Sequence record: ON286972
Length of the DNA: 64,000 nucleotides
Origin: Escherichia phage A4
Direction: 5' to 3' (one strand)
Part shown: positions 830-62,502 of the stretch, piece after piece
How the letters are laid out: each line of letters starts with the position of its first letter
Numbering within the stretch: the stretch's first letter is position 1
Made by a program: the position numbers and the translations under genes
Notes under the pieces: generated by a model
The model's database searches: none
Told to the model about the DNA's origin: nothing
What the model saw: only the letters and a program-made list of their open reading frames with translations

Positions 830-889
830 TACAAAAAAGGGGATTCTTATAATCCCCTATATTAATTTAATAAGGAGAGTATTATAACT

Positions 890-1102
890 ATGATAACTAT
901 CAATTACTTTTCACTATGCTTTGTTTATTTTGTTGTTGTATTTCTAGCAGTTGTAGCGTACAATAATATTAAATGTATATATAAAATTATCAAAAACAAA
1001 GAGAAATTCAATGGATGGATGATATATCACATTGTCATCTCGGTTGTGTGTATCTTATTTGTATACGATTTGAGTTCATTAGGTACAGTAGGTAAGCTAT
1101 GA
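890..1102 (+). CDS. small hydrophobic membrane protein
   Basis: 70-aa ORF, two hydrophobic segments; stop overlaps next start. Confidence 0.35.
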   Translation: MITINYFSLCFVYFVVVFLAVVAYNNIKCIYKIIKNKEKFNGWMIYHIVISVVCILFVYDLSSLGTVGKL

Positions 1103-1851
1103 TTTCTGACTCTTTTATAAAAAATAAAGGTAATAAACGTGTATTGGTTATTTCCGGTGCAGGTCTATCCGTTGAAAGTGGGATGGAACCGTTTCGCATG
1201 GACGATGGCCTATGGGATCAATTTCAAATAAATGATGTATGTAACATTGCACGTCTTAGTACTAAGTATCATTTAGTACACACTTTCTATAATACATTAC
1301 GTGTTAAAATGAAAGATTGTGTTCCTAATGATATGCATTATTATATCAAATCTCTAGAAGATACATACGGTGATAACTTTTTACATATGACTTCGAATAT
1401 GGATGATCTCTATACTCGTATTGGTGGTAATGAATTAAAGTTACATGGTAATTTAAAAGAAGTTATTGAGAATTTTACAATTGGTGGTGACGATTATAGT
1501 ATTGTGGATTGTGGTTATGAACCGTACATTCCGAAAGAAGGTGTCTTTGCGAAACCAAACGTAGTGTTCATTGGTGAATATTATCGTTATGTTGATGGTG
1601 AAAAACTCCCAATATACGATGAGCGTAATTTAATATTGCAATCCTTAACAGAAGATGATACAGTTGTAGTCATTGGTAGCAGTGACACAGTACTGAAATG
1701 GTCACATCTGGTTGCTTGTTTACCATGCTTTAGTGTTAATATCAACATCAGAAAAAATGATAACGATTTCATGTTCAATGAAAAAATTATAAAACCAGCT
1801 ACAAAAGCGATTCCAGTACTGGAAACTATCATTAAGGATAGAATGAAATGA
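1099..1851 (+). CDS. Sir2-family (sirtuin-like) NAD-dependent protein
   Basis: VLVISGAGLSVESGMEPFR..DGLW matches sirtuin NAD-binding motif GAGxSxxSGIPxFR..GLW; KLHGN candidate catalytic His; ATGA overlap with downstream Nudix. Confidence 0.6.
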   Translation: MISDSFIKNKGNKRVLVISGAGLSVESGMEPFRMDDGLWDQFQINDVCNIARLSTKYHLVHTFYNTLRVKMKDCVPNDMHYYIKSLEDTYGDNFLHMTSNMDDLYTRIGGNELKLHGNLKEVIENFTIGGDDYSIVDCGYEPYIPKEGVFAKPNVVFIGEYYRYVDGEKLPIYDERNLILQSLTEDDTVVVIGSSDTVLKWSHLVACLPCFSVNINIRKNDNDFMFNEKIIKPATKAIPVLETIIKDRMK

Positions 1852-2396
1852 TTCGAGAAGTACCTCTAGGTGAGTATGGTAAACGAGCAAACTTTGTATT
1901 CTGTTACTTCTTTGCTCGAAATTGTAACCCATATAAAGGTTATGAATTAAATGATATCCCTGTTGTGAATCTGGTATTACTCCAGCTTCGTTGGGATGGT
2001 TTACTGGGTGGTTGTGGTGGAACAGTCGAAGATACCGATGCCACCTTAGAAGATGCACTATTCCGTGAAATTCAGGAAGAGATGGATTATAATATTTTCA
2101 TCGAACAACTGAAACCATTGAAAACTTACGAACTATATCCTGGAGCACATACCCATAGCTATAGTTATGAAGTTACTTACGAAGAATTGAATGCGATTCG
2201 CGACGGATACAGTACTGCTAAACATGCAAGTGCAGAAGTGGCTGGTGTTAATTTATGTCACATTTCTCGTTATTCAAAGGGACAAAACCGAGAAGCAGGA
2301 TATAATAATCTTATGACACAAAACTTCATAGGAACTGCTAAAATGGAATTAGAACATCTTGTTCAATCCGAGAATTTACTGATTAGTTACTTATAA
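1848..2396 (+). CDS. Nudix-like hydrolase (degenerate Nudix box)
   Basis: GGTVEDTDATLEDALFREIQEE contains REIQEE signature of the Nudix box; start overlaps Sir2 stop. Confidence 0.45.
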   Translation: MIREVPLGEYGKRANFVFCYFFARNCNPYKGYELNDIPVVNLVLLQLRWDGLLGGCGGTVEDTDATLEDALFREIQEEMDYNIFIEQLKPLKTYELYPGAHTHSYSYEVTYEELNAIRDGYSTAKHASAEVAGVNLCHISRYSKGQNREAGYNNLMTQNFIGTAKMELEHLVQSENLLISYL

Positions 2397-2407
2397 GGTG
2401 AATTATA

Positions 2408-2740
2408 ATGTCTTACTCAATGTTTCTGGATGATATTCGTGATCCTGAAAAGTATTATCCAAATCAAAACATGGTTTTATGTCGTGATTATGAAAGTGCA
2501 TGTGCTTATGTAAATGAACATGGTTTACCACAATTTATTAGCTTCGATCATGACTTAGGTGATGTTGGGGAGGATGAAAAAACAGGGTATTCATTTGCAA
2601 AATTTCTAATTGATTATATGGTCGAAAACAATATCAGTACTGAATTCGATTATATCATCCATAGCAGTAATCCTGTAGGGAAGGTCAACATTGACACATA
2701 CTTACAGAATGGTTTTAGATTTTTGAGAGGGGACAATTGA
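2408..2740 (+). CDS. hypothetical protein
   Basis: 110-aa ORF with upstream AGGTGA; acidic motifs FLDDIRDP / SFDHDLGD; fold not assigned. Confidence 0.4.
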   Translation: MSYSMFLDDIRDPEKYYPNQNMVLCRDYESACAYVNEHGLPQFISFDHDLGDVGEDEKTGYSFAKFLIDYMVENNISTEFDYIIHSSNPVGKVNIDTYLQNGFRFLRGDN

Positions 2741-3100: not shown

Positions 3101-4540
3101 ATGAAAAAATACACAATTGACACAAACGTACTACTATCCGATCCAAATGCAACTGTAGCATTTGATGGGGCAGCAGTGATTCTACCATTCACTGTTCTTG
3201 AAGAACTTGATTCAATCAAGAGCCGTAATGTTGACGTATCACGTGATGCACGTTTCGCAATCCGTAACATCGATGCAATTCTGAAAGATGCTACTCATGA
3301 AGAAATCAGCAGTACTGGTGTTAATATTGCCAATATCCACAAAAATATGGATGCATCCAGTAAGCTATTCGTTATGACGAATGAAGAAGCTGAAGCACTT
3401 ATTCGTATGGGCGGCAGTGAAGATAAAGTAGAAACTCTACTTAAAAGTACTGTACCAGATGACAAAATCATTCTAGTGGCTTTGGCATCACAATCAGTAC
3501 TGGTAACTCGCGACATTAACATGCGTATCAAAGCAATGAGCTACGGTGTTGAGGTACAAGATTACCGTCATGACGTTGCAATCGAAGATAGTGAGTTGAT
3601 TCATATTGGTCAGCACCACCTTGATATTGATTTCTGGAAAACATTCAGTGAAGTTAATAATGCTGAAATTAAATCCCAACAAGAAGGTCGCCGTCTATAT
3701 CACTATATTCCAACCGCATTGATTCAAGATGTTCTACCAGATAATCTATGTATTGGTGATTATCTATATGATAATGCTGATGTACTATTCGTATACGAAG
3801 GTCAATCTGCTATCGAAGAAGAAGACGGTTCACTAACACCTGAAGATATTTTGGTATTCCAGGATATTGGTCAAAGTATCGCTCTTCGTGCTAAAGTTTG
3901 GGATATTAAAGCAAAGAATATTCAACAGGCACTAGCAATTAACAGTATTCTTGACCCTGATGTACATTTGACAGTACTACTCGGTTCAGCAGGTACTGGT
4001 AAAACATTGATTACTGTTGCTACTTCACTCGAATTAGTGCTGGAAAAACGTAAATACGATCGTATAATCTTCTCCAAAACACAAGATTCTCAATTTGAAG
4101 AAATTGGTTTCTTGCCTGGTTCTGAAGCTGAGAAGGTCATCCCATTCTGTGGGGCTGCAATTGATGCACTAGAGTATCTACACAAAGACGATGCTAACCC
4201 ACAAGGTAGTATTGAAGAGATTCTCAAACGTAACGTAATGCAGTTTAAAGCATTGAACTTTATTCGTGGTCGTTCTTTTACTAATACAATTCTAATTGTT
4301 GATGAATTCCAGAACATCACCCCTGCACAGGCAAAAACTATTCTTACCCGTGCAGGTCAAAACTGTAAGGTTATCATTATGGGTAACTTAGCACAGATTG
4401 ATAGTAAGTTTATTAGTCCAGTTAATAGTGGTTTGACATATGTAACTGAAAAATTCAAAGATTGGGAAGGGTGTCGTATCATTGAATTGGAAGGTGTTGT
4501 ACGTTCTGCACTTGCAGAGTTTGCAGAAGAAAATATGTAA
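3101..4540 (+). CDS. phoH: PhoH-like ATPase with N-terminal PIN-like domain
   Basis: Walker A GSAGTGKT, Walker B IVDEFQN; N-terminal ~130 aa PIN-like; start moved to ATG 3101 (MKKYTIDTN) with AAGGA upstream. Confidence 0.7.
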   Translation: MKKYTIDTNVLLSDPNATVAFDGAAVILPFTVLEELDSIKSRNVDVSRDARFAIRNIDAILKDATHEEISSTGVNIANIHKNMDASSKLFVMTNEEAEALIRMGGSEDKVETLLKSTVPDDKIILVALASQSVLVTRDINMRIKAMSYGVEVQDYRHDVAIEDSELIHIGQHHLDIDFWKTFSEVNNAEIKSQQEGRRLYHYIPTALIQDVLPDNLCIGDYLYDNADVLFVYEGQSAIEEEDGSLTPEDILVFQDIGQSIALRAKVWDIKAKNIQQALAINSILDPDVHLTVLLGSAGTGKTLITVATSLELVLEKRKYDRIIFSKTQDSQFEEIGFLPGSEAEKVIPFCGAAIDALEYLHKDDANPQGSIEEILKRNVMQFKALNFIRGRSFTNTILIVDEFQNITPAQAKTILTRAGQNCKVIIMGNLAQIDSKFISPVNSGLTYVTEKFKDWEGCRIIELEGVVRSALAEFAEENM

Positions 4541-4547
4541 TCTATTA

Positions 4548-4576
4548 TTGACATTAAATGTGTTCATTGCTATAAT
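4548..4576 (+). promoter_or_regulatory. sigma70-type promoter (TTGACA-17-TATAAT)
   Basis: TTGACA 4548-4553, 17-bp spacer, TATAAT 4571-4576, ~30 bp upstream of ORF 4609. Confidence 0.55.
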
Positions 4577-7779: not shown

Positions 7780-8139
7780 ATGAGTGATTATGTTGCATTC
7801 CTACATCGTTTTGGTAAAGCTGAAGAAAAGCACATCATTCGTCTACCAGCTTATGGTGAGAAAGACTGGTACAAAAGTACTATCAGCGTAGGTGCATTCC
7901 GTGACCGTGAAGCTGAATTCTTTCTCGGTAAGCAACATGAACGAGCAGTACTTTGCTCCCTTTGGCGTTTAGACGAATGGGATGAAGAGAATGCAAGAAC
8001 TGCGGTATCAATGCTTAAAATTGTTGGCATTGCAAACTATCAGCACCCATATGATCTATTACCTACGTTTACCCATGCTTCATTGTTTGACTTTTATAAA
8101 GCAATCGGGTATGATTATAAAAAGAAACGTTATATCTGA
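7780..8139 (+). CDS. hypothetical protein
   Basis: 119-aa ORF. Confidence 0.45.
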   Translation: MSDYVAFLHRFGKAEEKHIIRLPAYGEKDWYKSTISVGAFRDREAEFFLGKQHERAVLCSLWRLDEWDEENARTAVSMLKIVGIANYQHPYDLLPTFTHASLFDFYKAIGYDYKKKRYI

Positions 8140-8149
8140 GGATCAATCC

Positions 8150-8953
8150 ATGTCGAATCCAATCTGTAAGCATTGTTCAAAAACTAAATTCTACCATGAA
8201 CCACATACATTGAAATGTCCTAAACCTTCTCGTTCTCTTCTCGTCACTTATGAAGATGTTAATGTATATGATGAAGTAGTTTCTGAACCAAACGTTTTAG
8301 TTATTCCAGAAATCAATCAAACCGTAAGTACATTACTAGATTGGAAAGAACAGATTACCAATGTAGATGATTTTGTTATTCCGTTACATGACAAACAATG
8401 GGTTTTTGATACGATTTATAAAAATGCCGATGTTGATTGTGAAGAAGAAGCAGATGACCTAAAATGTGCATTAAACAATTGTGATGGAACTGTCGTTTTA
8501 GGTAAACCGGATACTGCAAATGATGGAACTTATCTAATGTTTGGTATGAAAACCAATATCGGTGAACTTGAAGATGATTATTGCCTTCTTGATAATATTA
8601 CATTAATAGAATGGAGTAAGCTTTCTAATTTAGAATTGATTGAAATTGGCACTTTTGAAAGTCATATGGATATTGATGAAAGTAAGAATAAAGGTATTAA
8701 TGCCTTTATGTCTGAAGTTATTGGGCGTTCATTGTATAGTCCCGATTCCGTTGATATCAAAACGACTGCTGATTGTAAAGCATTCCTAAAGCAAGAATAT
8801 GATGTTGAAAAAGCAAAACGCATTAAAAAAGAAAAATGGGGTCAAATCGAATACCGCTTATTTGAATCAGATGAAGGTAGACATTACACCTTAGTATCGT
8901 ATAACGATAAACTAATTTCTCATTACGCTTTTGCATATAACGAAGACTACTAA
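8150..8953 (+). CDS. hypothetical protein with N-terminal Cys-rich segment
   Basis: start moved to ATG 8150 (MSNPICKHCSK) with GAGGA 7 nt upstream; track ORF from 7982 overlaps previous gene. Confidence 0.5.
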   Translation: MSNPICKHCSKTKFYHEPHTLKCPKPSRSLLVTYEDVNVYDEVVSEPNVLVIPEINQTVSTLLDWKEQITNVDDFVIPLHDKQWVFDTIYKNADVDCEEEADDLKCALNNCDGTVVLGKPDTANDGTYLMFGMKTNIGELEDDYCLLDNITLIEWSKLSNLELIEIGTFESHMDIDESKNKGINAFMSEVIGRSLYSPDSVDIKTTADCKAFLKQEYDVEKAKRIKKEKWGQIEYRLFESDEGRHYTLVSYNDKLISHYAFAYNEDY

Positions 8954-21885: not shown

Positions 21886-22287
21886 ATGGATCTTGATGAT
21901 GTGTATAGCACCATAAGACAGATGGATTCGTATAAAAAAGTATATAGTGGTTACAAGAGTGATAAACAATTTTATGGAATCGGGGAGTATGATGTAATAT
22001 CATTCGAATACGATGATACTGGTGAAAGTTCCATTAATATTGTTTGCCCTCGTGACCGTGAAAATAACTTCATGTACGTTGAAATCAATAATGATGGTTT
22101 ACACTTTACTAAAATATTAAATGGTGGCAAACAATCTATTTCTCTGGATTTATCCGAAGAAGAAAAGTTCTTTCAAGAAGATACTATAATCAATCTTGGT
22201 TTTAGTTTATCAGAATACAAAGTTCTTCATAAAGATTTCATGAAGTACTATAATGGGTTTCTTAAGGAGCTAACATTACATCTATGA
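21886..22287 (+). CDS. hypothetical protein
   Basis: 133-aa ORF. Confidence 0.45.
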   Translation: MDLDDVYSTIRQMDSYKKVYSGYKSDKQFYGIGEYDVISFEYDDTGESSINIVCPRDRENNFMYVEINNDGLHFTKILNGGKQSISLDLSEEEKFFQEDTIINLGFSLSEYKVLHKDFMKYYNGFLKELTLHL

Positions 22288-23525
22288 ATAATAACAAATT
22301 TCTTGAACAAACAATTGTGAAGCACTTAGCAGGTTCACAAGCGTATGGAACCAGTACACCTGAAAGTGATACGGATTATCGTGGTATTTTTCTTGCTAAC
22401 AAAGAATTCATCCTTACGCCTTTTTATAATGTAAAGGAAGTTTCTGATTCAAGAGAAGAAGATACTAAATTCTATGAACTAAACCAGTACTTAAGACTAT
22501 ACACAGAGGCTAACCCAAATATCCTTGAATCACTATGGGTCGATCCTGAACACATCGTAGAAAGTACTGAGATCTATGATTATCTACGCACTTTCAATCA
22601 ACAATTGCTTAGCTCAAAGATTGCACACTCTTATACTGGTTATGCCTATAATCAGGTTAAGCGTATGTCTAATCACCACGGGTGGATGGATAAAGAGCGT
22701 ATTGCTGAAAAACGTCTAAATGAAATCTTAGAAGATTTTCCAGTAGATGAAACTTTAGCATGGATGTATGAAAACTTCCCACACTATTTGGTAGAACGTT
22801 TAGATACTTCTAAACTACATCCATTTAATGCTAAGAAAATAGATTTTGAAAAATACATGCGTGATACTTCATTGCAGTTAGTTTCAACTAATCCGTTGAA
22901 ACAGTATCATTTTGTACGTTTAGTACATAATTACAGTACTGATAAAGTACTAGACCGTGATTTCAACTTATTGGATTATAACAATGGGTACGAATTAATT
23001 CATTACGGTGAAAATATCTTTGGTGTTATTATCAATCCTAATGAAAGTACAGTTAACGCGGATGGTTCTTTACGTTATTTCAACAAAGAACGCAGTACTG
23101 AAGAATTGAAAGTACGACCTGAACTCATTGTTAAATTCAATGAAAAAGAATACAGTGAGAACAGTGAGAACCGTAAAAGTTATCACAAATGGAAAGAGAA
23201 TCGTAATGCTAAACGTGCAATTCTTGAATCCAAACACGGCTACGATTGCAAACATGCTATGCATACGATCAGACTTTTGAATACAGCCGAAGAAGCATTA
23301 CAAAGCGGTATTATTCTGGTGAAACGTCCTGATGCTGATATGCTAATGGATATTCGCAACGGTAAGTGGAAATATGAAGAAGTCATGGAGTACTTTAACG
23401 ATAAGGTAAAATATATTCGTGAAGTACTTTATCCTAAGTCAGTACTCCCGAAGAAACCAGATATTGCATTAGCTGCGAAAGTACTGTTAGATATTCGCGA
23501 AATGCAGTGGTACGGTAAGAAATAG
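22284..23525 (+). CDS. Pol-beta-superfamily nucleotidyltransferase-domain protein
   Basis: N-terminal GSQAYGTSTPESDTDYRG fits GS-x(9-13)-DxD nucleotidyltransferase signature; 413 aa. Confidence 0.45.
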   Translation: MNNNKFLEQTIVKHLAGSQAYGTSTPESDTDYRGIFLANKEFILTPFYNVKEVSDSREEDTKFYELNQYLRLYTEANPNILESLWVDPEHIVESTEIYDYLRTFNQQLLSSKIAHSYTGYAYNQVKRMSNHHGWMDKERIAEKRLNEILEDFPVDETLAWMYENFPHYLVERLDTSKLHPFNAKKIDFEKYMRDTSLQLVSTNPLKQYHFVRLVHNYSTDKVLDRDFNLLDYNNGYELIHYGENIFGVIINPNESTVNADGSLRYFNKERSTEELKVRPELIVKFNEKEYSENSENRKSYHKWKENRNAKRAILESKHGYDCKHAMHTIRLLNTAEEALQSGIILVKRPDADMLMDIRNGKWKYEEVMEYFNDKVKYIREVLYPKSVLPKKPDIALAAKVLLDIREMQWYGKK

Positions 23526-39621: not shown

Positions 39622-40689
39622 ATGTATAAATTTTATTTTAATGAAAATAACGAGAAGGTATATTTCCATGAAGAATTAGGTATGCGTTTCGAATGGATGC
39701 GTCCCGAAGATTTATCACCAAAATTAATTAAAACATCAAAAACACCTAAAGAACATTTTGATGAAATAATAGAAAAAGGATATAATATTTTAGGATTTGC
39801 TATAACATCAAGTGATGAATGGAAATCTAGTTTTACAAGAACTGTTGTTGAAAAAGATGGTATTATATATACAAAAAGAAATATAAATGATATAAAAACG
39901 AAAGGTATGAAATATATCATTGGGAAATATGACAATGAAAATTATAGATATTATCTTTATAAGACTTCAAAAAGTCTAATGACTGGTGAATGTGAATTAC
40001 TTTTAGAACAACCAATAATTAAAGATAAAAGAACCAAATTAACTTATAAATGCTTAAAATGTGGTCACGTTGATGAAATGGAAATTAGTAATATACAAAG
40101 TGGTCAGGGTTGCTCTATTTGTCGATTTGAAAAAACCAGATTAGCACACGCATTCACCACCGCTGAATTTGTTGAACGAGCAAAAGAAATTCATGGTAAT
40201 GTATATAACTATTCAAAAGTCATCTACATTAATAGTAGCACTCATGTTGAAATAATTTGTAAAAAACATAATAATTCTTTTTATATCATTCCAAATTTTC
40301 ATATAGCAAAAAATAAAAATCAAGGTTGCCCAATATGCTCATCTGAACATACTGAATCCAGAGCTAGTAGAGAAATAACACGTTTTTTAATTGAAAATGG
40401 TATAAAATTTAATAAAGAACAAACATTTAGTGACTGTAAAAATAAAATGTTATTAAGATTTGATTTTTATTTGGTTGATTATGATATTTGTATTGAGTAT
40501 GATGGTAAACAACATTTTGAGAAATCACCTCATTGGGGTGGAGAAGATAAATTGAAAAACATCAAGGATAACGATACTATAAAGACACAATATTGTGAAA
40601 AGAATTTTATTAAATTAATACGTGTAACATATTATGAAGACCACTTAACTGTATTAAAAAAACATCTTTCAGAGGAAGGTATATTATGA
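39622..40689 (+). CDS. Zn-ribbon protein with C-terminal endonuclease-like domain (possible free-standing homing endonuclease)
   Basis: multiple CxxC pairs; C-terminal RFDFYLVDYDICIEYDGKQHF resembles PD-(D/E)xK/DUF559-type motif; gene markedly more AT-rich than neighbours. Confidence 0.35.
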   Translation: MYKFYFNENNEKVYFHEELGMRFEWMRPEDLSPKLIKTSKTPKEHFDEIIEKGYNILGFAITSSDEWKSSFTRTVVEKDGIIYTKRNINDIKTKGMKYIIGKYDNENYRYYLYKTSKSLMTGECELLLEQPIIKDKRTKLTYKCLKCGHVDEMEISNIQSGQGCSICRFEKTRLAHAFTTAEFVERAKEIHGNVYNYSKVIYINSSTHVEIICKKHNNSFYIIPNFHIAKNKNQGCPICSSEHTESRASREITRFLIENGIKFNKEQTFSDCKNKMLLRFDFYLVDYDICIEYDGKQHFEKSPHWGGEDKLKNIKDNDTIKTQYCEKNFIKLIRVTYYEDHLTVLKKHLSEEGIL

Positions 40690-41798
40690 AAAAGTATTTG
40701 GTGGGCGGCTATGTGAGGGACCGTTTAATGGGTATTCGTACAAAAGACAAAGATTATGTCATTGTCGGTGCTACCGAATCCGATATTAAGTACTTACAAA
40801 GTATTGGCTATAAGCAAGTAGGTAAGGATTTTCCCGTGTATCTAAGTCCAGAGGGTAATGAGCACGCATTGGCCCGTACCGAACGTAAAACTGGTACTGG
40901 TTACGGTGGCTTCGAAGTGAATACTAAAGGCGTGACACTAGAGCAAGATCTATACAGAAGGGATATTACGGTAAATAGCATAGCGTATGATCCAGTACTG
41001 CAAATTCACATCGACCCATACGGTGGTAAAGCTGATATCAAGAATAAAGTACTACGCCATGTATCCGAGCACTTCAAAGAAGATCCATTACGTGTATTAC
41101 GTCTAGCTCGCTTTGCTACGCGTTATTCTGATTTCTCTATACACGAGACTACTGAAGCACTTGCAATCGATATGGTAGCGTCTGGTGAGCTAAATCACCT
41201 TGTTCCAGACCGTGTTTATGTTGAATTTGAAAAAGCACTGTCAGAAGAAAAGCCAGCTAAGTTCCTTAAAACACTAAGTAAGTTGGGTTACTATGAAAAA
41301 GCATTTAATGCAACATTAACCAAAAAGTCATTGGAACTCATTGATCATATCTCTGATAATTGTACTGAAGCATATAAGCCATATTTCTTATGGTCTGTGC
41401 TTCTTGAGAAAGAAGAAGTTGGTGAGGATTCAGTACTGAATGGTGCTATTAAAATGCCCGTTAAGTACGTTAAATTCAGTAATTACATCAAACGTTTCCG
41501 TGATGATATCAAGGCATTCCGTAAAAAGACCCCAAATGAAATGGGACAATTATTACTGGATATGAATATCAAGAATAACGGCGGTGAAGAATTCCTTTAC
41601 AAAGTACTGGAATATTTTATTCTACGTAAAGAGATTGATTTAGACCTTGAAGATTTAATCATTAAGGTATATGATCGTTACACTGATGTAGTACTTCCAG
41701 ATATTCAACAACTGGTAAAAGACGGTGAGTTAGAAGCATCTGAAATCCGTGATTTTGTTTCAGATTTACGTTGTGAAGCAATTCAACAAATGTTTTAA
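40686..41798 (+). CDS. tRNA nucleotidyltransferase (CCA-adding enzyme) family protein
   Basis: N-terminal GGYVRDRLMG..DKDYV head-domain motif. Confidence 0.65.
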   Translation: MKKYLVGGYVRDRLMGIRTKDKDYVIVGATESDIKYLQSIGYKQVGKDFPVYLSPEGNEHALARTERKTGTGYGGFEVNTKGVTLEQDLYRRDITVNSIAYDPVLQIHIDPYGGKADIKNKVLRHVSEHFKEDPLRVLRLARFATRYSDFSIHETTEALAIDMVASGELNHLVPDRVYVEFEKALSEEKPAKFLKTLSKLGYYEKAFNATLTKKSLELIDHISDNCTEAYKPYFLWSVLLEKEEVGEDSVLNGAIKMPVKYVKFSNYIKRFRDDIKAFRKKTPNEMGQLLLDMNIKNNGGEEFLYKVLEYFILRKEIDLDLEDLIIKVYDRYTDVVLPDIQQLVKDGELEASEIRDFVSDLRCEAIQQMF

Positions 41799-41884: not shown

Positions 41885-42301
41885 GTGGCATTATATTTTA
41901 TCGTGATGGTCAGATACTTGTTGGACACACAACACGGACAGAAGCATTGGGATTTACCAAAAGGTAAAACCGAGGGCAATGAAACATTTGCTGAAGCTGC
42001 TGTTCGTGAGTGCTATGAAGAAACAGGATTTGAGATTGATGAAAAGGATCTTCTCTTATTAGGTGATGTATCATACAGGAAAGGGAAAAGATTAGTTTTA
42101 TTTTTCTATACAGCTAAATACAAACCCGAACCGGATGAACTGAAGTGTAACAGTACTTATACCAATCGATATGGTAAAAGCCATCCAGAATTGGATAAAT
42201 TCATGTACATTGATGTTCAAGATTGTCAAAAGTATTTGACCGAACGAATGTGTAACAGTATAATTAAAGCTGTTAAATTGTTTCAAAAAAATAAAGGATA
42301 G
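41885..42301 (+). CDS. Nudix hydrolase (apparent frameshift at 5' end)
   Basis: perfect Nudix box GKTEGNETFAEAAVRECYEETGF; expected N-terminal strand MRYSCGIIFYRDGQILVGH is in the -1 frame starting ATG 41872. Confidence 0.5.
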   Translation: MALYFIVMVRYLLDTQHGQKHWDLPKGKTEGNETFAEAAVRECYEETGFEIDEKDLLLLGDVSYRKGKRLVLFFYTAKYKPEPDELKCNSTYTNRYGKSHPELDKFMYIDVQDCQKYLTERMCNSIIKAVKLFQKNKG

Positions 42302-43140: not shown

Positions 43141-43617
43141 ATGATACATGAACATCACGGAAATCTGTTTGAATTATTCAGTACTGTAACTGATGATCAT
43201 ACTGCATTACATATTATAGCTCATGGTTGTAATGCTCAAGGTAAAATGGGTTCTGGTTTTGCAAAAGAACTCAGAATGCAGTACCCAAAGGCATATGATG
43301 ATTATAAAGAATATGAAAAGAGAATGGGTTTTCTAAGAACCGGACAAATTGCATATTCAGCAATTAATGATGATTTGATTATCGCAAACTGCATTACTCA
43401 AAAATGGTACGGAACTGATGGTGCAAAATACGTAAGCTATGATGCCATTGATGACGTTTTCATGCATTTGAATTTTTTCTGTAAAATTGAACGAAATGTT
43501 CATGTACACTTTCCGAAAATTGGAGCCGATTTGGGCGGTGGTAACTGGAACGTTATCAAAGAAATCATTGACCACAGGCTGGTTAATGCTGAAAAACATT
43601 TATATATTCTCAAATAA
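43141..43617 (+). CDS. macro-domain-like protein (ADP-ribose binding/processing)
   Basis: IIAHGCNAQGKMGSGFAKEL resembles macro motif NAAN..GGGV..AI; start set at ATG 43141. Confidence 0.4.
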   Translation: MIHEHHGNLFELFSTVTDDHTALHIIAHGCNAQGKMGSGFAKELRMQYPKAYDDYKEYEKRMGFLRTGQIAYSAINDDLIIANCITQKWYGTDGAKYVSYDAIDDVFMHLNFFCKIERNVHVHFPKIGADLGGGNWNVIKEIIDHRLVNAEKHLYILK

Positions 43618-43957: not shown

Positions 43958-44335
43958 ATGGCTGCTAATGAAGTGAAAGCAAAAACTATTCAAGCTATCG
44001 TAGTACTGAAAGGTAAAACCCCATCACCAAAAGAATTGGTTATGGCTGGCATGACTATGCTACATCAGTACAACCCAGCATCCCCTAACTATGTTCAAGA
44101 ATATGAAGCCAAACAGTTTAAAGCTCATTGGGATTCATGGATTAAAGACAATGAACTGGAACAAGTTGTCTATGAAGCAGATGACATGGATGAAATGATG
44201 CAGATTGAATATCTTGCGAATCAGCAGTCAGTACCACTAAGTATGTTTGGTAATGGGGAAGAGGTTCTAGTACTCGGCCCCTTCACTAAAAAAGATATTG
44301 AACACATTGTCACTAACTGTACAAAGATAAGTTAG
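43958..44335 (+). CDS. hypothetical protein
   Basis: 125-aa ORF. Confidence 0.45.
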   Translation: MAANEVKAKTIQAIVVLKGKTPSPKELVMAGMTMLHQYNPASPNYVQEYEAKQFKAHWDSWIKDNELEQVVYEADDMDEMMQIEYLANQQSVPLSMFGNGEEVLVLGPFTKKDIEHIVTNCTKIS

Positions 44336-61627: not shown

Positions 61628-61925
61628 AGTTACTAGAGAAGATATCATTCTCAAAATAACTGAAGAAAGACAGAAACAAATAGATAATCCAAATACATTA
61701 TCTGATACACTTAAAACAAAGAATGATTGGGCTTCCTTATGTGCCTATTATCTCTTCGAAGGGGCAACTCGCCCCGATAAGCATGTATCATTCGATGAAT
61801 TTAGAGAGTCCTTAATCAAAGCTGGTGCTGTCATTTTGGCAGCCCTTGAAACCAGTTTCGCATTAGAGGATGAGAAATTACAAGAATTAATGTCTGCTTT
61901 GGAACATAAGAATGACGATAAATGA
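61620..61925 (+). CDS. hypothetical protein
   Basis: start set at ATG 61620 overlapping previous stop. Confidence 0.4.
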   Translation: MAKVTREDIILKITEERQKQIDNPNTLSDTLKTKNDWASLCAYYLFEGATRPDKHVSFDEFRESLIKAGAVILAALETSFALEDEKLQELMSALEHKNDDK

Positions 61926-62502
61926 ACTTGATGAAGCAATCAAGGGATTAACTAATACATTTTATAGCGGTGGTGCACAAGGTGCAGACCGCTTTTTCAC
62001 TTTATATGCTATGGAAAATGGTTTTAATGTAATTAACTTTTCATTCAAAAATCATAATCATAGTGTTGATGAAAGTACTATATTAGAAATCCCATCTTAT
62101 ATTTTGAATGATAGTTCTATTCTACATCAACTAAACATGGCATGTTATTCATTACAACGCCGTGTACCTAAACCTGGCTCGTATGTTTATAATCTATTAG
62201 CTCGTAATAGATATCAAATTTTAAACACAGAGAGAGTTTATTGTATGGCTTCACTTGTTTCACCTACTCAAGTTAGTGGTGGTACTGCATGGGCTGTACA
62301 AATGTATATTGACAGTACTGATAATCCTGAAATATACTGCTATGACATTAATGACAGAAAAGTATATTCATATAATCCAGTACTAAAAGAATTCGAAGAA
62401 ACCGCATCAGTACCTAAGCCGCATGGAAATTGGACGGGAATAGGCTCAAGAAATGCACAAGAAAAGCATATGATGCACTTTACAACATTTTTTCAAGGAT
62501 GA
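61912..62502 (+). CDS. Rossmann-like nucleotide-binding protein with GGAxGxD motif (SLOG/DprA-like?)
   Basis: FYSGGAQGADRF near N-terminus; assignment tentative. Confidence 0.3.
   Translation: MTINELDEAIKGLTNTFYSGGAQGADRFFTLYAMENGFNVINFSFKNHNHSVDESTILEIPSYILNDSSILHQLNMACYSLQRRVPKPGSYVYNLLARNRYQILNTERVYCMASLVSPTQVSGGTAWAVQMYIDSTDNPEIYCYDINDRKVYSYNPVLKEFEETASVPKPHGNWTGIGSRNAQEKHMMHFTTFFQG

Follow-up and report, generated by a model that had tools for sequence, protein, structure and literature searches.

The closest described counterpart of the locus examined here is a sirtuin gene neighborhood reported by Iyer, Burroughs, Anantharaman, and Aravind in 2022 (Viruses 14:1977, section 3.7.3; PMC9503650), with Serratia phage BF as the prototype. 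From gene context, these authors proposed that the phage sirtuin acts on RNA 2'-phosphates in the manner of KptA/Tpt1, and that the accompanying 2H, cREC, HAD, and Nudix proteins process cyclic ends or ADP-ribose cyclic phosphate (PMC9503650). They describe cREC as experimentally uncharacterized (PMC9503650); the domain had been defined by the same group in a 2021 paper on jumbo phages (PMC7824862). Our literature search found these two papers from the Aravind laboratory to be the only relevant ones and returned no experimental work on phage sirtuins or cREC. We analyzed 64,000 nt of Escherichia phage A4 (ON286972; hereafter the window, with positions counted from its first letter), in which a sirtuin (Sir2), a Nudix hydrolase, and a cREC protein are encoded consecutively at 1099–2740. 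The three genes form the enzymatic core of a gene block conserved in Rak2-like jumbo phages. The gene arrangement itself has been published and is annotated in GenBank, and goes little beyond the comparative-genomics papers of 2021–2022; our additions to the published picture are the adjacency of NARP2 and Acb1-like genes, details of the active sites, and the RNA-repair genes of the jumbo phage PBECO4.

Like the BF neighborhood, the window encodes a sirtuin of the same clade, a NUDT16-like Nudix, cREC, and a downstream PIN-PhoH protein, all contiguous and co-oriented. Protein identity between these members of the same phage supergroup is 40% for Sir2, 49% for the Nudix, 59% for cREC, and 69% for PhoH. 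The two loci differ in that Nudix and cREC are fused in BF but separate in the window, which also lacks the 2H, NadM, and NadV genes. A second point of reference is the Tpt1/KptA pathway, which runs from Tpt1 to a cyclic phosphodiesterase and then to the macro-domain phosphatase Poa1. Here the resemblance lies in the proposed chemistry, in which a phosphate oxygen attacks C1'' of nicotinamide adenine dinucleotide (NAD+) and the ribose 2''-OH then yields ADP-ribose cyclic phosphate. Among window proteins, cREC, the Nudix, and a distal macro protein that partly resembles Poa1 would be the counterparts of the follow-up enzymes. The window enzyme, however, has a sirtuin fold and not an ADP-ribosyltransferase fold, and the likeness is one of functional analogy only. 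Some Tpt1 enzymes use NAD+ to remove terminal RNA phosphates (PMC6573784). Finally, NARP2, which consists of the Nampt NadV and the Nmnat NadM, defeats NAD-depleting defenses (bioRxiv 10.1101/2024.02.11.579819). It lies upstream of the same block in relatives, whereas the window block makes no NAD+.

The case for linkage among the block genes rests on conserved gene order and on a Nudix–cREC fusion, not on overlapping reading frames. All on the plus strand, the block runs from a peptide with two transmembrane segments through Sir2, Nudix, cREC, and a small membrane protein to PIN-PhoH (Table 1). From Sir2 onward, this order is kept in the GenBank loci of PBECO4, Klebsiella phage Muenster, Pectobacterium phage CBB, and BF, which we compared together with loci from IMG/VR. 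It recurs in 15 IMG/VR loci retrieved with the Nudix as query and in 15 of the 16 Rak2-like loci within a sample of 80 Sir2 neighborhoods retrieved with the sirtuin; the sixteenth is cut at a contig end, leaving the block intact in 15/15 complete loci. Sir2 identity falls to 38% across this set. The membrane protein directly follows cREC in every complete jumbo-phage locus (15/15, at 38–51% identity), and PIN-PhoH is syntenic in all jumbo-phage loci compared. Synteny reaches well past the block among these phages. In 9 of the 15 complete IMG/VR loci, and also in BF and CBB, Nudix and cREC form a single polypeptide. We regard this fusion as the best evidence that the two enzymes act together, and it makes cREC the most informative partner.

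The three core proteins differ in how widely they are distributed. When 50,697 phage records were searched by tblastn, sirtuin homologs appeared in 983, among them T5-like, rV5-like, KVP40-like, and jumbo phages, and cREC homologs in 139. The window-type Nudix was confined to 87 records, mostly Rak2-like jumbo phages plus 17 Aeromonas records; the Aeromonas-phage records listed carry the annotation NudE or Nudix. Word-indexed homolog searches with Sir2, Nudix, and cREC, which reached close relatives only for the first two (29 sirtuin and 11 Nudix proteins), gave no new fusion besides Nudix–cREC. All 29 sirtuins were single-domain proteins without a sensor or partner domain, and all 11 Nudix proteins shared one architecture. 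For cREC, the search returned 159 proteins down to ~33% identity; the 120 homologs listed were all short (81–154 amino acids) and carried a cREC domain at most.

The sirtuin assignment is supported at the level of both sequence and fold. Against Pfam SIR2 the protein scores 2.1e-19 (70.6 bits; cut-off 24), and it also matches the PHROG 'Sir2' family. A profile built from 19 homologs and searched against the Protein Data Bank (PDB) ranked E. coli CobB first among relatives of solved structure (2e-39), and an AlphaFold2 model (predicted local distance difference test score, pLDDT, of 91) found E. coli CobB structures as its best Foldseek matches (E 1e-18; template-modeling scores 0.77/0.85). The closest sequences and structures are those of E. 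coli CobB and human SIRT5, at only ~29% identity. Shared with these enzymes are the fold, the NAD-binding loop, N100/D102, the catalytic His-Gly pair, and most acyl-lysine tunnel positions. The window sirtuin carries the motifs G20-A21-G22-L23-S24, G28, F32-R33, G37-L38-W39, and H116-G117; in an alignment of phage homologs with CobB, G20, G22, and G28 never vary, and F32 and R33 hardly do. With its NAD-binding and catalytic residues and its modeled CobB fold, the window sirtuin looks catalytically competent. Sirtuins of the Alcyoneusvirus type (e.g., Klebsiella phage Muenster, L005 5267–6004; P0012, P0013) read GNGLS...YD where the others read GAGLS...FR, and in these proteins the loop that holds the NAD co-substrate may be defective even though the N, D, and H residues are kept.

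Four features set the phage clade apart from CobB. The TQNID equivalent is T98-S99-N100-M101-D102; in phage sirtuins Ser, Ala, or Thr takes the place of its Gln, whereas N100, D102, and H116-G117 are kept. No zinc-binding cysteine is conserved between H116 and K152 in any phage homolog; the zinc-module region is shortened, with a conserved GYEPYIP in its place. The zinc module shapes the cleft in which peptides bind; with its cysteines lost and a shorter segment standing instead, the substrate site differs from that of CobB. Only the phage clade has a VCNI motif. The substrate arginine of CobB and SIRT5 (CobB R95, in YxxR) corresponds to Leu67 in the jumbo-phage branch, while rV5-like, T5-like, and Vibrio-phage sirtuins keep the arginine. 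Three more specific identities were considered and set aside. The best NCBIfam CobB score was 93 bits against equivalog cut-offs of 243–320, so the protein represents a divergent phage clade and not a true CobB ortholog. It had no PADLOC match and is neither a defense-type Sir2 (ThsA, DSR, Sir2-HerA) nor a known anti-defense protein. As for SirTM, the neighbors of the sirtuin are Nudix and cREC, and the only macro gene lies ~41 kb away.

The Nudix is a true NUDT16 homolog and is predicted from its residues to be catalytically competent. It scores 3.8e-19 (69.6 bits; cut-off 27) against Pfam Nudt16-like (PF22327) and 3e-13 by phmmer against human NUDT16, nearly full length over residues 28–178. 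Its Nudix box, GGTVEDTDATLEDALFREIQEEMDY, contains an intact R73-E74-I75-Q76-E77-E78 (REIQEE) and follows the NUDT16 variant, not the strict GX5EX7 spacing; R73, E74, E77, and E78 are invariant within the clade. The box type and full-length homology are shared with NUDT16, Xenopus X29, and T4 NudE.1. The phage Nudix, unlike NUDT16 and T4 NudE.1, is linked or fused to cREC, and NudE of T4-like Aeromonas phages is only 28–30% identical to it. T4 NudE.1 was earlier shown to decap NAD-capped RNA in vitro, as recounted in a preprint (bioRxiv 10.1101/2024.04.04.588121). A full HMMER scan of the Nudix profile against 1.84 billion representative proteins found only 466 related clusters. The 10 longest multi-domain Nudt16-like members scanned comprised one cREC fusion, one with Ham1, and two with HD domains; outside phages, the fusions are to Ham1 (ITPase) and HD_4 domains (P0211, P0210, P0256).

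The third core protein matches Pfam cREC_REC (PF20274) at 1.8e-22 (80.3 bits; cut-off 27). Its fold is that of a CheY-like receiver, its acidic active-site residues are conserved, and the DD, DHD, and HS motifs do not vary: across 34 homologs D8, D9, R11, F46-D47-H48-D49, H85-S86, and N88 are invariant. We predict it to be a phosphoesterase. A sequence search against the PDB yielded no solved relative, and no kinase was present among the ~30 window reading frames scanned. Outside the jumbo-phage block, we sampled cREC in five unrelated phage contexts, and in three of them RNA ligase or RtcB genes are close by: two contigs have RNA ligase genes at a distance of 2–3 kb, and another has RtcB nearby. 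In each of two metagenomic phage contigs, a pair of cREC paralogs flanks a ClpS gene (L007 5186–5527 and 5995–6372; L013 5184–5549 and 5926–6423), with AAA_28 (NadR-kinase-like) and ClpX genes nearby.

What the core enzymes do together can be approached through the other contexts of the sirtuin clade, the strongest independent ones being RNA-end-processing genes. We reproduced the three sirtuin neighborhood types of Iyer et al. 2022 (PMC9503650). About ten rV5-like loci carry, in this order, a metallophosphoesterase, Rnl1 RNA ligase, cREC (Pfam 4.5e-15), polynucleotide kinase (PNK), and Sir2. In rV5 itself (GenBank), Rnl1, cREC, and Sir2 point one way and the kinase and phosphoesterase genes diverge from them; tRNA genes lie beside the cluster. 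A NadV/Namat-like gene occurs ~7 kb away on the opposite strand in the rV5-like loci. A HAD_SAK_2 phosphatase (4.2e-20), an enzyme of the RNA-repair type, comes after Sir2 in 26 of the 80 loci, nearly all of them T5-like, with PhoH and NrdD upstream. PBECO4 itself encodes an Rnl1-like ligase and a full-length T4-like PNK 15–18 kb from Sir2, beyond the region equivalent to the window. Genes that make NAD+ also recur: within 8 kb of Sir2, NadV is present in 24/80 loci and NadM in 18/80. In addition to the jumbo loci in which one or both adjoin the sirtuin (L032–L046), three unrelated contigs (L083, L069, L108) have NadV or NadM next to Sir2, and in a fourth, L082, NadM alone lies ~8 kb upstream. 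Contig L108 unites NadM, NadV, HAD_SAK_2, Sir2, and a Prs-like gene. The proximity of NadV/NadM to Sir2, and the Prs-like gene following Sir2 in L108, fit a stoichiometric use of NAD+.

We tentatively favor, at somewhat less than an even chance, a model in which the sirtuin, cREC, and Nudix would constitute an NAD+-dependent module for RNA-end repair. The sirtuin would spend NAD+ on a macromolecular substrate, releasing nicotinamide and an ADP-ribose derivative; the favored substrate would be a phosphate of damaged RNA, with the enzyme acting while RNAs that host ribotoxins have cleaved are being repaired. cREC would open ADP-ribose cyclic phosphate, and the Nudix would cleave the pyrophosphate to give AMP and ribose phosphates. 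In sister phages, the adjoining NadV and NadM would rebuild NAD+ from nicotinamide. We infer all of the catalytic steps, the RNA substrate, and the reaction order alike. This RNA-directed model has the broadest contextual support, in that three lineages pair the sirtuin with RNA-end enzymes and cREC has ligase links of its own. The RNA-repair genes of PBECO4 (Rnl1-like, PNK) and of the window (a CCA-adding enzyme and RlaP) also count in its favor, as does the KptA–Nudix fusion reported in Bodo saltans mimivirus. If true, the model would widen the known roles of sirtuins and add an NAD+-dependent step to phage RNA repair. A more committed version, which we hold to be rather doubtful, is that the phage sirtuin works on nucleic acid and not on proteins, using NAD+ to strip or ADP-ribosylate phosphates on cleaved RNA. 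The Nudix–cREC pair would then dismantle ADP-ribose cyclic phosphate, with NadV/NadM closing the NAD+ cycle in sister phages. Were this so, it would be the first sirtuin of its kind and a new arm against host ribotoxins in ~2% of sequenced phages.

Several observations weigh against an RNA-directed role. To our knowledge, no sirtuin acting on RNA has been shown. The positions of the CobB acyl-lysine pocket are largely kept (Y64, M101, H116, V155), and, judged by its residues, the active site fits a hydrophobic acyl substrate better than a phosphate; Leu67 in place of CobB R95, the pocket's one basic residue, does not suit a phosphate nucleophile. PIN nucleases leave 3'-OH and 5'-phosphate ends, not cyclic phosphates, and the phosphatase domain of PNK, full-length in PBECO4, should leave no 2'-phosphate. 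The window encodes no RNA ligase. The immediate neighbors in sister phages, NARP2 and an Acb1-family gene, both have known counter-defense functions. Fusions of Nudt16-like domains to Ham1 and HD domains point to cleaning of the nucleotide pool, and the known role of NUDT16 in inosine-nucleotide cleaning fits the Ham1/HD_4 fusions. Overlapping genes, moreover, are common in the window.

The likeliest rival takes the likeness to CobB conservatively. The sirtuin would reprogram proteins of the host or the phage, either as a protein lysine deacylase dependent on NAD+ or as a protein ADP-ribosyltransferase, with the Nudix and cREC clearing O-acyl-ADP-ribose or ADP-ribose; we consider this possible, if on the unlikely side. 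Clearance would relieve product inhibition and recover AMP and ribose phosphate, an extension we hold no more firmly. The closest relatives by sequence and structure, CobB and SIRT5, agree with such a role, as do the conserved acyl-lysine tunnel positions and catalytic His. Without the CobB arginine, the pocket of the jumbo clade would be more hydrophobic, a feature to be expected if it receives acetyl or longer acyl groups. NUDT16 hydrolyzes free and protein-linked ADP-ribose, and an adjoining NadV would remove nicotinamide, a sirtuin inhibitor. Yet the cysteines of the zinc module are gone, with the GYEPYIP segment in their place, and the substrate site is unlike that of CobB. The recurrent partners of the clade are RNA-end enzymes (Rnl1, PNK, HAD_SAK_2, cREC), not protein-modifying ones, and a deacylase would leave cREC without a clear role.

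The neighbors upstream of the block in sister phages raise a second alternative. NadM and NadV lie within ~6 kb upstream in 15 of the 16 Rak2-like loci, and NARP2 is found in this position in Alcyoneusvirus, Mimasvirus, Eneladusvirus, and other relatives. The Rak2-like locus without NadM/NadV belongs to Asteriusvirus (121Q); the PBECO4 locus and the window also lack them. A 2H phosphodiesterase gene of the Acb1 family stands directly upstream of Sir2 in 14/16. Its representatives BF_0110 and CBB_118 (L003 4504–4950; L004 5279–5725) match Pfam Acb1, an anti-CBASS family, at 1e-15 to 4e-15, and the published RNA-repair neighborhood may on this account include an anti-defense gene. tblastn searches of the 64-kb window with the BF proteins gave no match for NadM, NadV, or the 2H/Acb1-like protein, and the last is missing from the 121Q and PBECO4 loci as well; a NAD-salvage module inside the window was accordingly rejected.

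On this basis the block could be read as part of a counter-defense island in which the Nudix and cREC destroy immune signals derived from ADP-ribose, or toxic metabolites (cyclic ADP-ribose isomers, ADP-ribose cyclic phosphate, or ADP-ribose 1''-phosphate). The sirtuin would modify a defense component or tune NAD+ turnover, with NARP2 and Acb1-like genes alongside. We think both parts of this proposal unlikely, even though the upstream genes speak for it, as do the window's DarG-like macro protein and second Nudix. According to Iyer et al., phage Macro, Nudix, and SLOG domains mainly oppose ADP-ribose signals, and such domains co-occur in large DNA viruses beyond chance expectation (PMC9503650). 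The block, however, is intact in the window although NadM, NadV, and the Acb1-like gene have been lost or were never present. A sirtuin consumes NAD+, which runs contrary to NAD+ rescue; no PADLOC or anti-defense model matches the sirtuin or cREC, and adjacency within one phage lineage may only mirror shared ancestry. The original prediction had argued that sirtuins produce ADP-ribose derivatives which Nudix enzymes hydrolyze, and had suggested a counter-defense or NAD-salvage module. That enzymatic logic is correct. The suggestion drawn from it is plausible and gains from the NARP2 and Acb1-family genes upstream in sister phages, but the window holds no NAD-synthesis gene and its sirtuin matches no defense model. 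If true, counter-defense would add to the phage enzymes known to act against NAD- and ADP-ribose-based immunity. For deciding among these functions, the three small soluble proteins should be easy to express and assay, making them a good experimental target.

That the block is no functional unit but a packing of unrelated auxiliary genes, with the Nudix cleaning (deoxy)inosine or other NDP-X nucleotides and the sirtuin acting independently, seems improbable: overlap at 33% of same-strand junctions in the window, the many nucleotide-metabolism genes of the region, Ham1 (ITPase) fusions of Nudt16-like domains in other organisms, and jumbo-phage synteny well beyond the block would agree with it, but the Nudix–cREC fusion shows joint working, Sir2–cREC adjacency recurs in the unrelated rV5-like lineage, and a KptA–Nudix fusion reported in Bodo saltans mimivirus offers a parallel (PMC9503650). 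The RNA-directed model remains our preferred reading of the block, whose features are collected with the distal ones in Table 1.

Table 1. Coordinates and supporting evidence for the features of the Sir2–Nudix–cREC block, its boundaries, and candidate distal ADP-ribose-related genes in the window.
Feature	Position	Strand	Evidence or context
G+C-rich hairpin, terminator-like on both strands	838–858		Between an HslV-like peptidase gene and the block
70-amino-acid open reading frame (ORF), two hydrophobic segments	890–1102	+	Stop overlaps sirtuin ATG (ATGA 1099–1102)
CobB-like class III sirtuin, 250 amino acids	1099–1851	+	Pfam SIR2, PDB profile search, AlphaFold2 model, Foldseek
NUDT16-like Nudix hydrolase, 182 amino acids	1848–2396	+	Pfam Nudt16-like, human NUDT16 match
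cREC domain protein, 110 amino acids, receiver fold	2408–2740	+	Pfam PF20274
99-amino-acid membrane protein, one N-terminal hydrophobic helix	2737–3036	+	phrog_14661; TTG start overlaps cREC stop
PIN-PhoH: PIN endoRNase domain and PhoH ATPase	3101–4540	+	Pfam PIN_4 1.2e-21, PhoH 1e-43
Perfect sigma-70-type promoter consensus (TTGACA, 17 nt, TATAAT, extended -10 TG)	4548–4576	+	8 nt past PhoH stop
Second Nudix hydrolase, canonical Nudix box	41885–42301	+	Adjoins CCA-adding enzyme gene 40686–41798
Macro-domain protein, DarG-like	43141–43617	+	Solved macro domains 8.5e-14; yeast Poa1p 6e-8
Weakly SLOG/DprA-like Rossmannoid protein, motif YSGGAQGAD	61912–62502	+	Adjoins thymidylate synthase

The six block genes are bracketed by the hairpin and the promoter. 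The former is likely the upstream boundary of the block; the latter, the sole 12/12 consensus match in the first 6.4 kb of the window, likely starts the next transcription unit. Within the block, ATGA at 1848–1851 is common to the Sir2 stop and the Nudix start, and the Nudix stop TAA (2394–2396) is followed by an 11-nt spacer containing GGTG and then by the cREC ATG. The PIN-PhoH frame opens at GTG 3077, and AAGGA precedes the ATG at 3101. The single-pass membrane protein has four cysteines in its C-terminal part. PBECO4 has a counterpart of the leading peptide, a similar 64-amino-acid frame directly upstream of Sir2 (L001 3622–3816) that shares the motif YNNxKCxY and is absent from the RefSeq annotation. 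Across the window, 31 of 94 same-strand junctions overlap (33%), 10 of the 94 by 4 nt. Since tight packing is the norm, the ATGA overlap alone is no evidence for functional coupling, and we rejected it as proof.

These results largely uphold what had been proposed for the interval from the letters alone. The sirtuin-like protein at 1099–1851 carries all of the motifs then listed, matches SIR2, and has the CobB fold. Neither of the two outcomes that would have spoken against it, failure in SIR2 profile searches or loss of catalytic residues, occurred: N100, D102, and H116 are kept. The Nudix-like gene overlapping it by ATGA is likewise borne out by the Nudt16-like match. The small protein placed 12 bp further on is indeed acidic (pI 4.35, with 19 D+E against 8 K+R), but the spacer is 11 nt and the protein is cREC. 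Of the proposed translational coupling, the overlap itself stands, while the conclusion does not follow from it at the frequency seen here. The original prediction missed two further overlaps, the identity of cREC, the NUDT16 type of the Nudix, and the continuation into the membrane protein and PIN-PhoH.

The distal genes that had been named alongside the block fared similarly. The second Nudix has the canonical box expected of it, and the macro-like protein is confirmed by solved macro domains. Its similarity to Poa1p is partial (residues 7–93) and DarG models matched below their cut-offs; going by these matches, it might hydrolyze ADP-ribose 1''-phosphate or act as an ADP-ribosyl hydrolase. 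The protein described as a GGAxGxD Rossmann protein does match PHROG 'DprA-like' (4e-25), but the SLOG call is weak (YAcAr 7.5e-4, below cut-off), and a sequence search against the PDB gave no match.

Over the whole window, G+C content is ~35% and nearly all genes lie on the plus strand. The first 6 kb share gene order and 77–80% DNA identity with Asteriusvirus E. coli jumbo phages (PBECO4 and relatives), and NCBI proteins filed under 'Escherichia coli' are 98–99% identical to the window Nudix and cREC. The region is rich in nucleotide-metabolism genes: one for NrdD, so named because its PBECO4 homolog is annotated that way, and others for a deaminase, thymidylate synthase, a dNMP kinase, and glutaredoxins. 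The 64-kb window has no tRNA genes. It encodes an RlaP 'RNA repair pathway' nucleotidyltransferase (22284–23525, 2e-17), the CCA-adding enzyme (1.8e-18), and, as a weak match, a PTH2-like peptidyl-tRNA hydrolase (43958–44335, 5e-4). PBECO4 gp086, the counterpart of the frame at 7982–8953 and also 972 nt long, is annotated as a 'WGR domain-containing protein'; Pfam found no WGR domain in the 323-amino-acid window protein, only a weak MCM_OB match (0.07). At 39622–40689, a 355-amino-acid ORF that shares 4 nt with the CCA-adding enzyme gene encodes a treble-clef zinc finger (DUF4379, 2e-7). Only small ORFs occupy the corresponding position in PBECO4, which suggests that this gene may be inserted, in the manner of a homing-type element.

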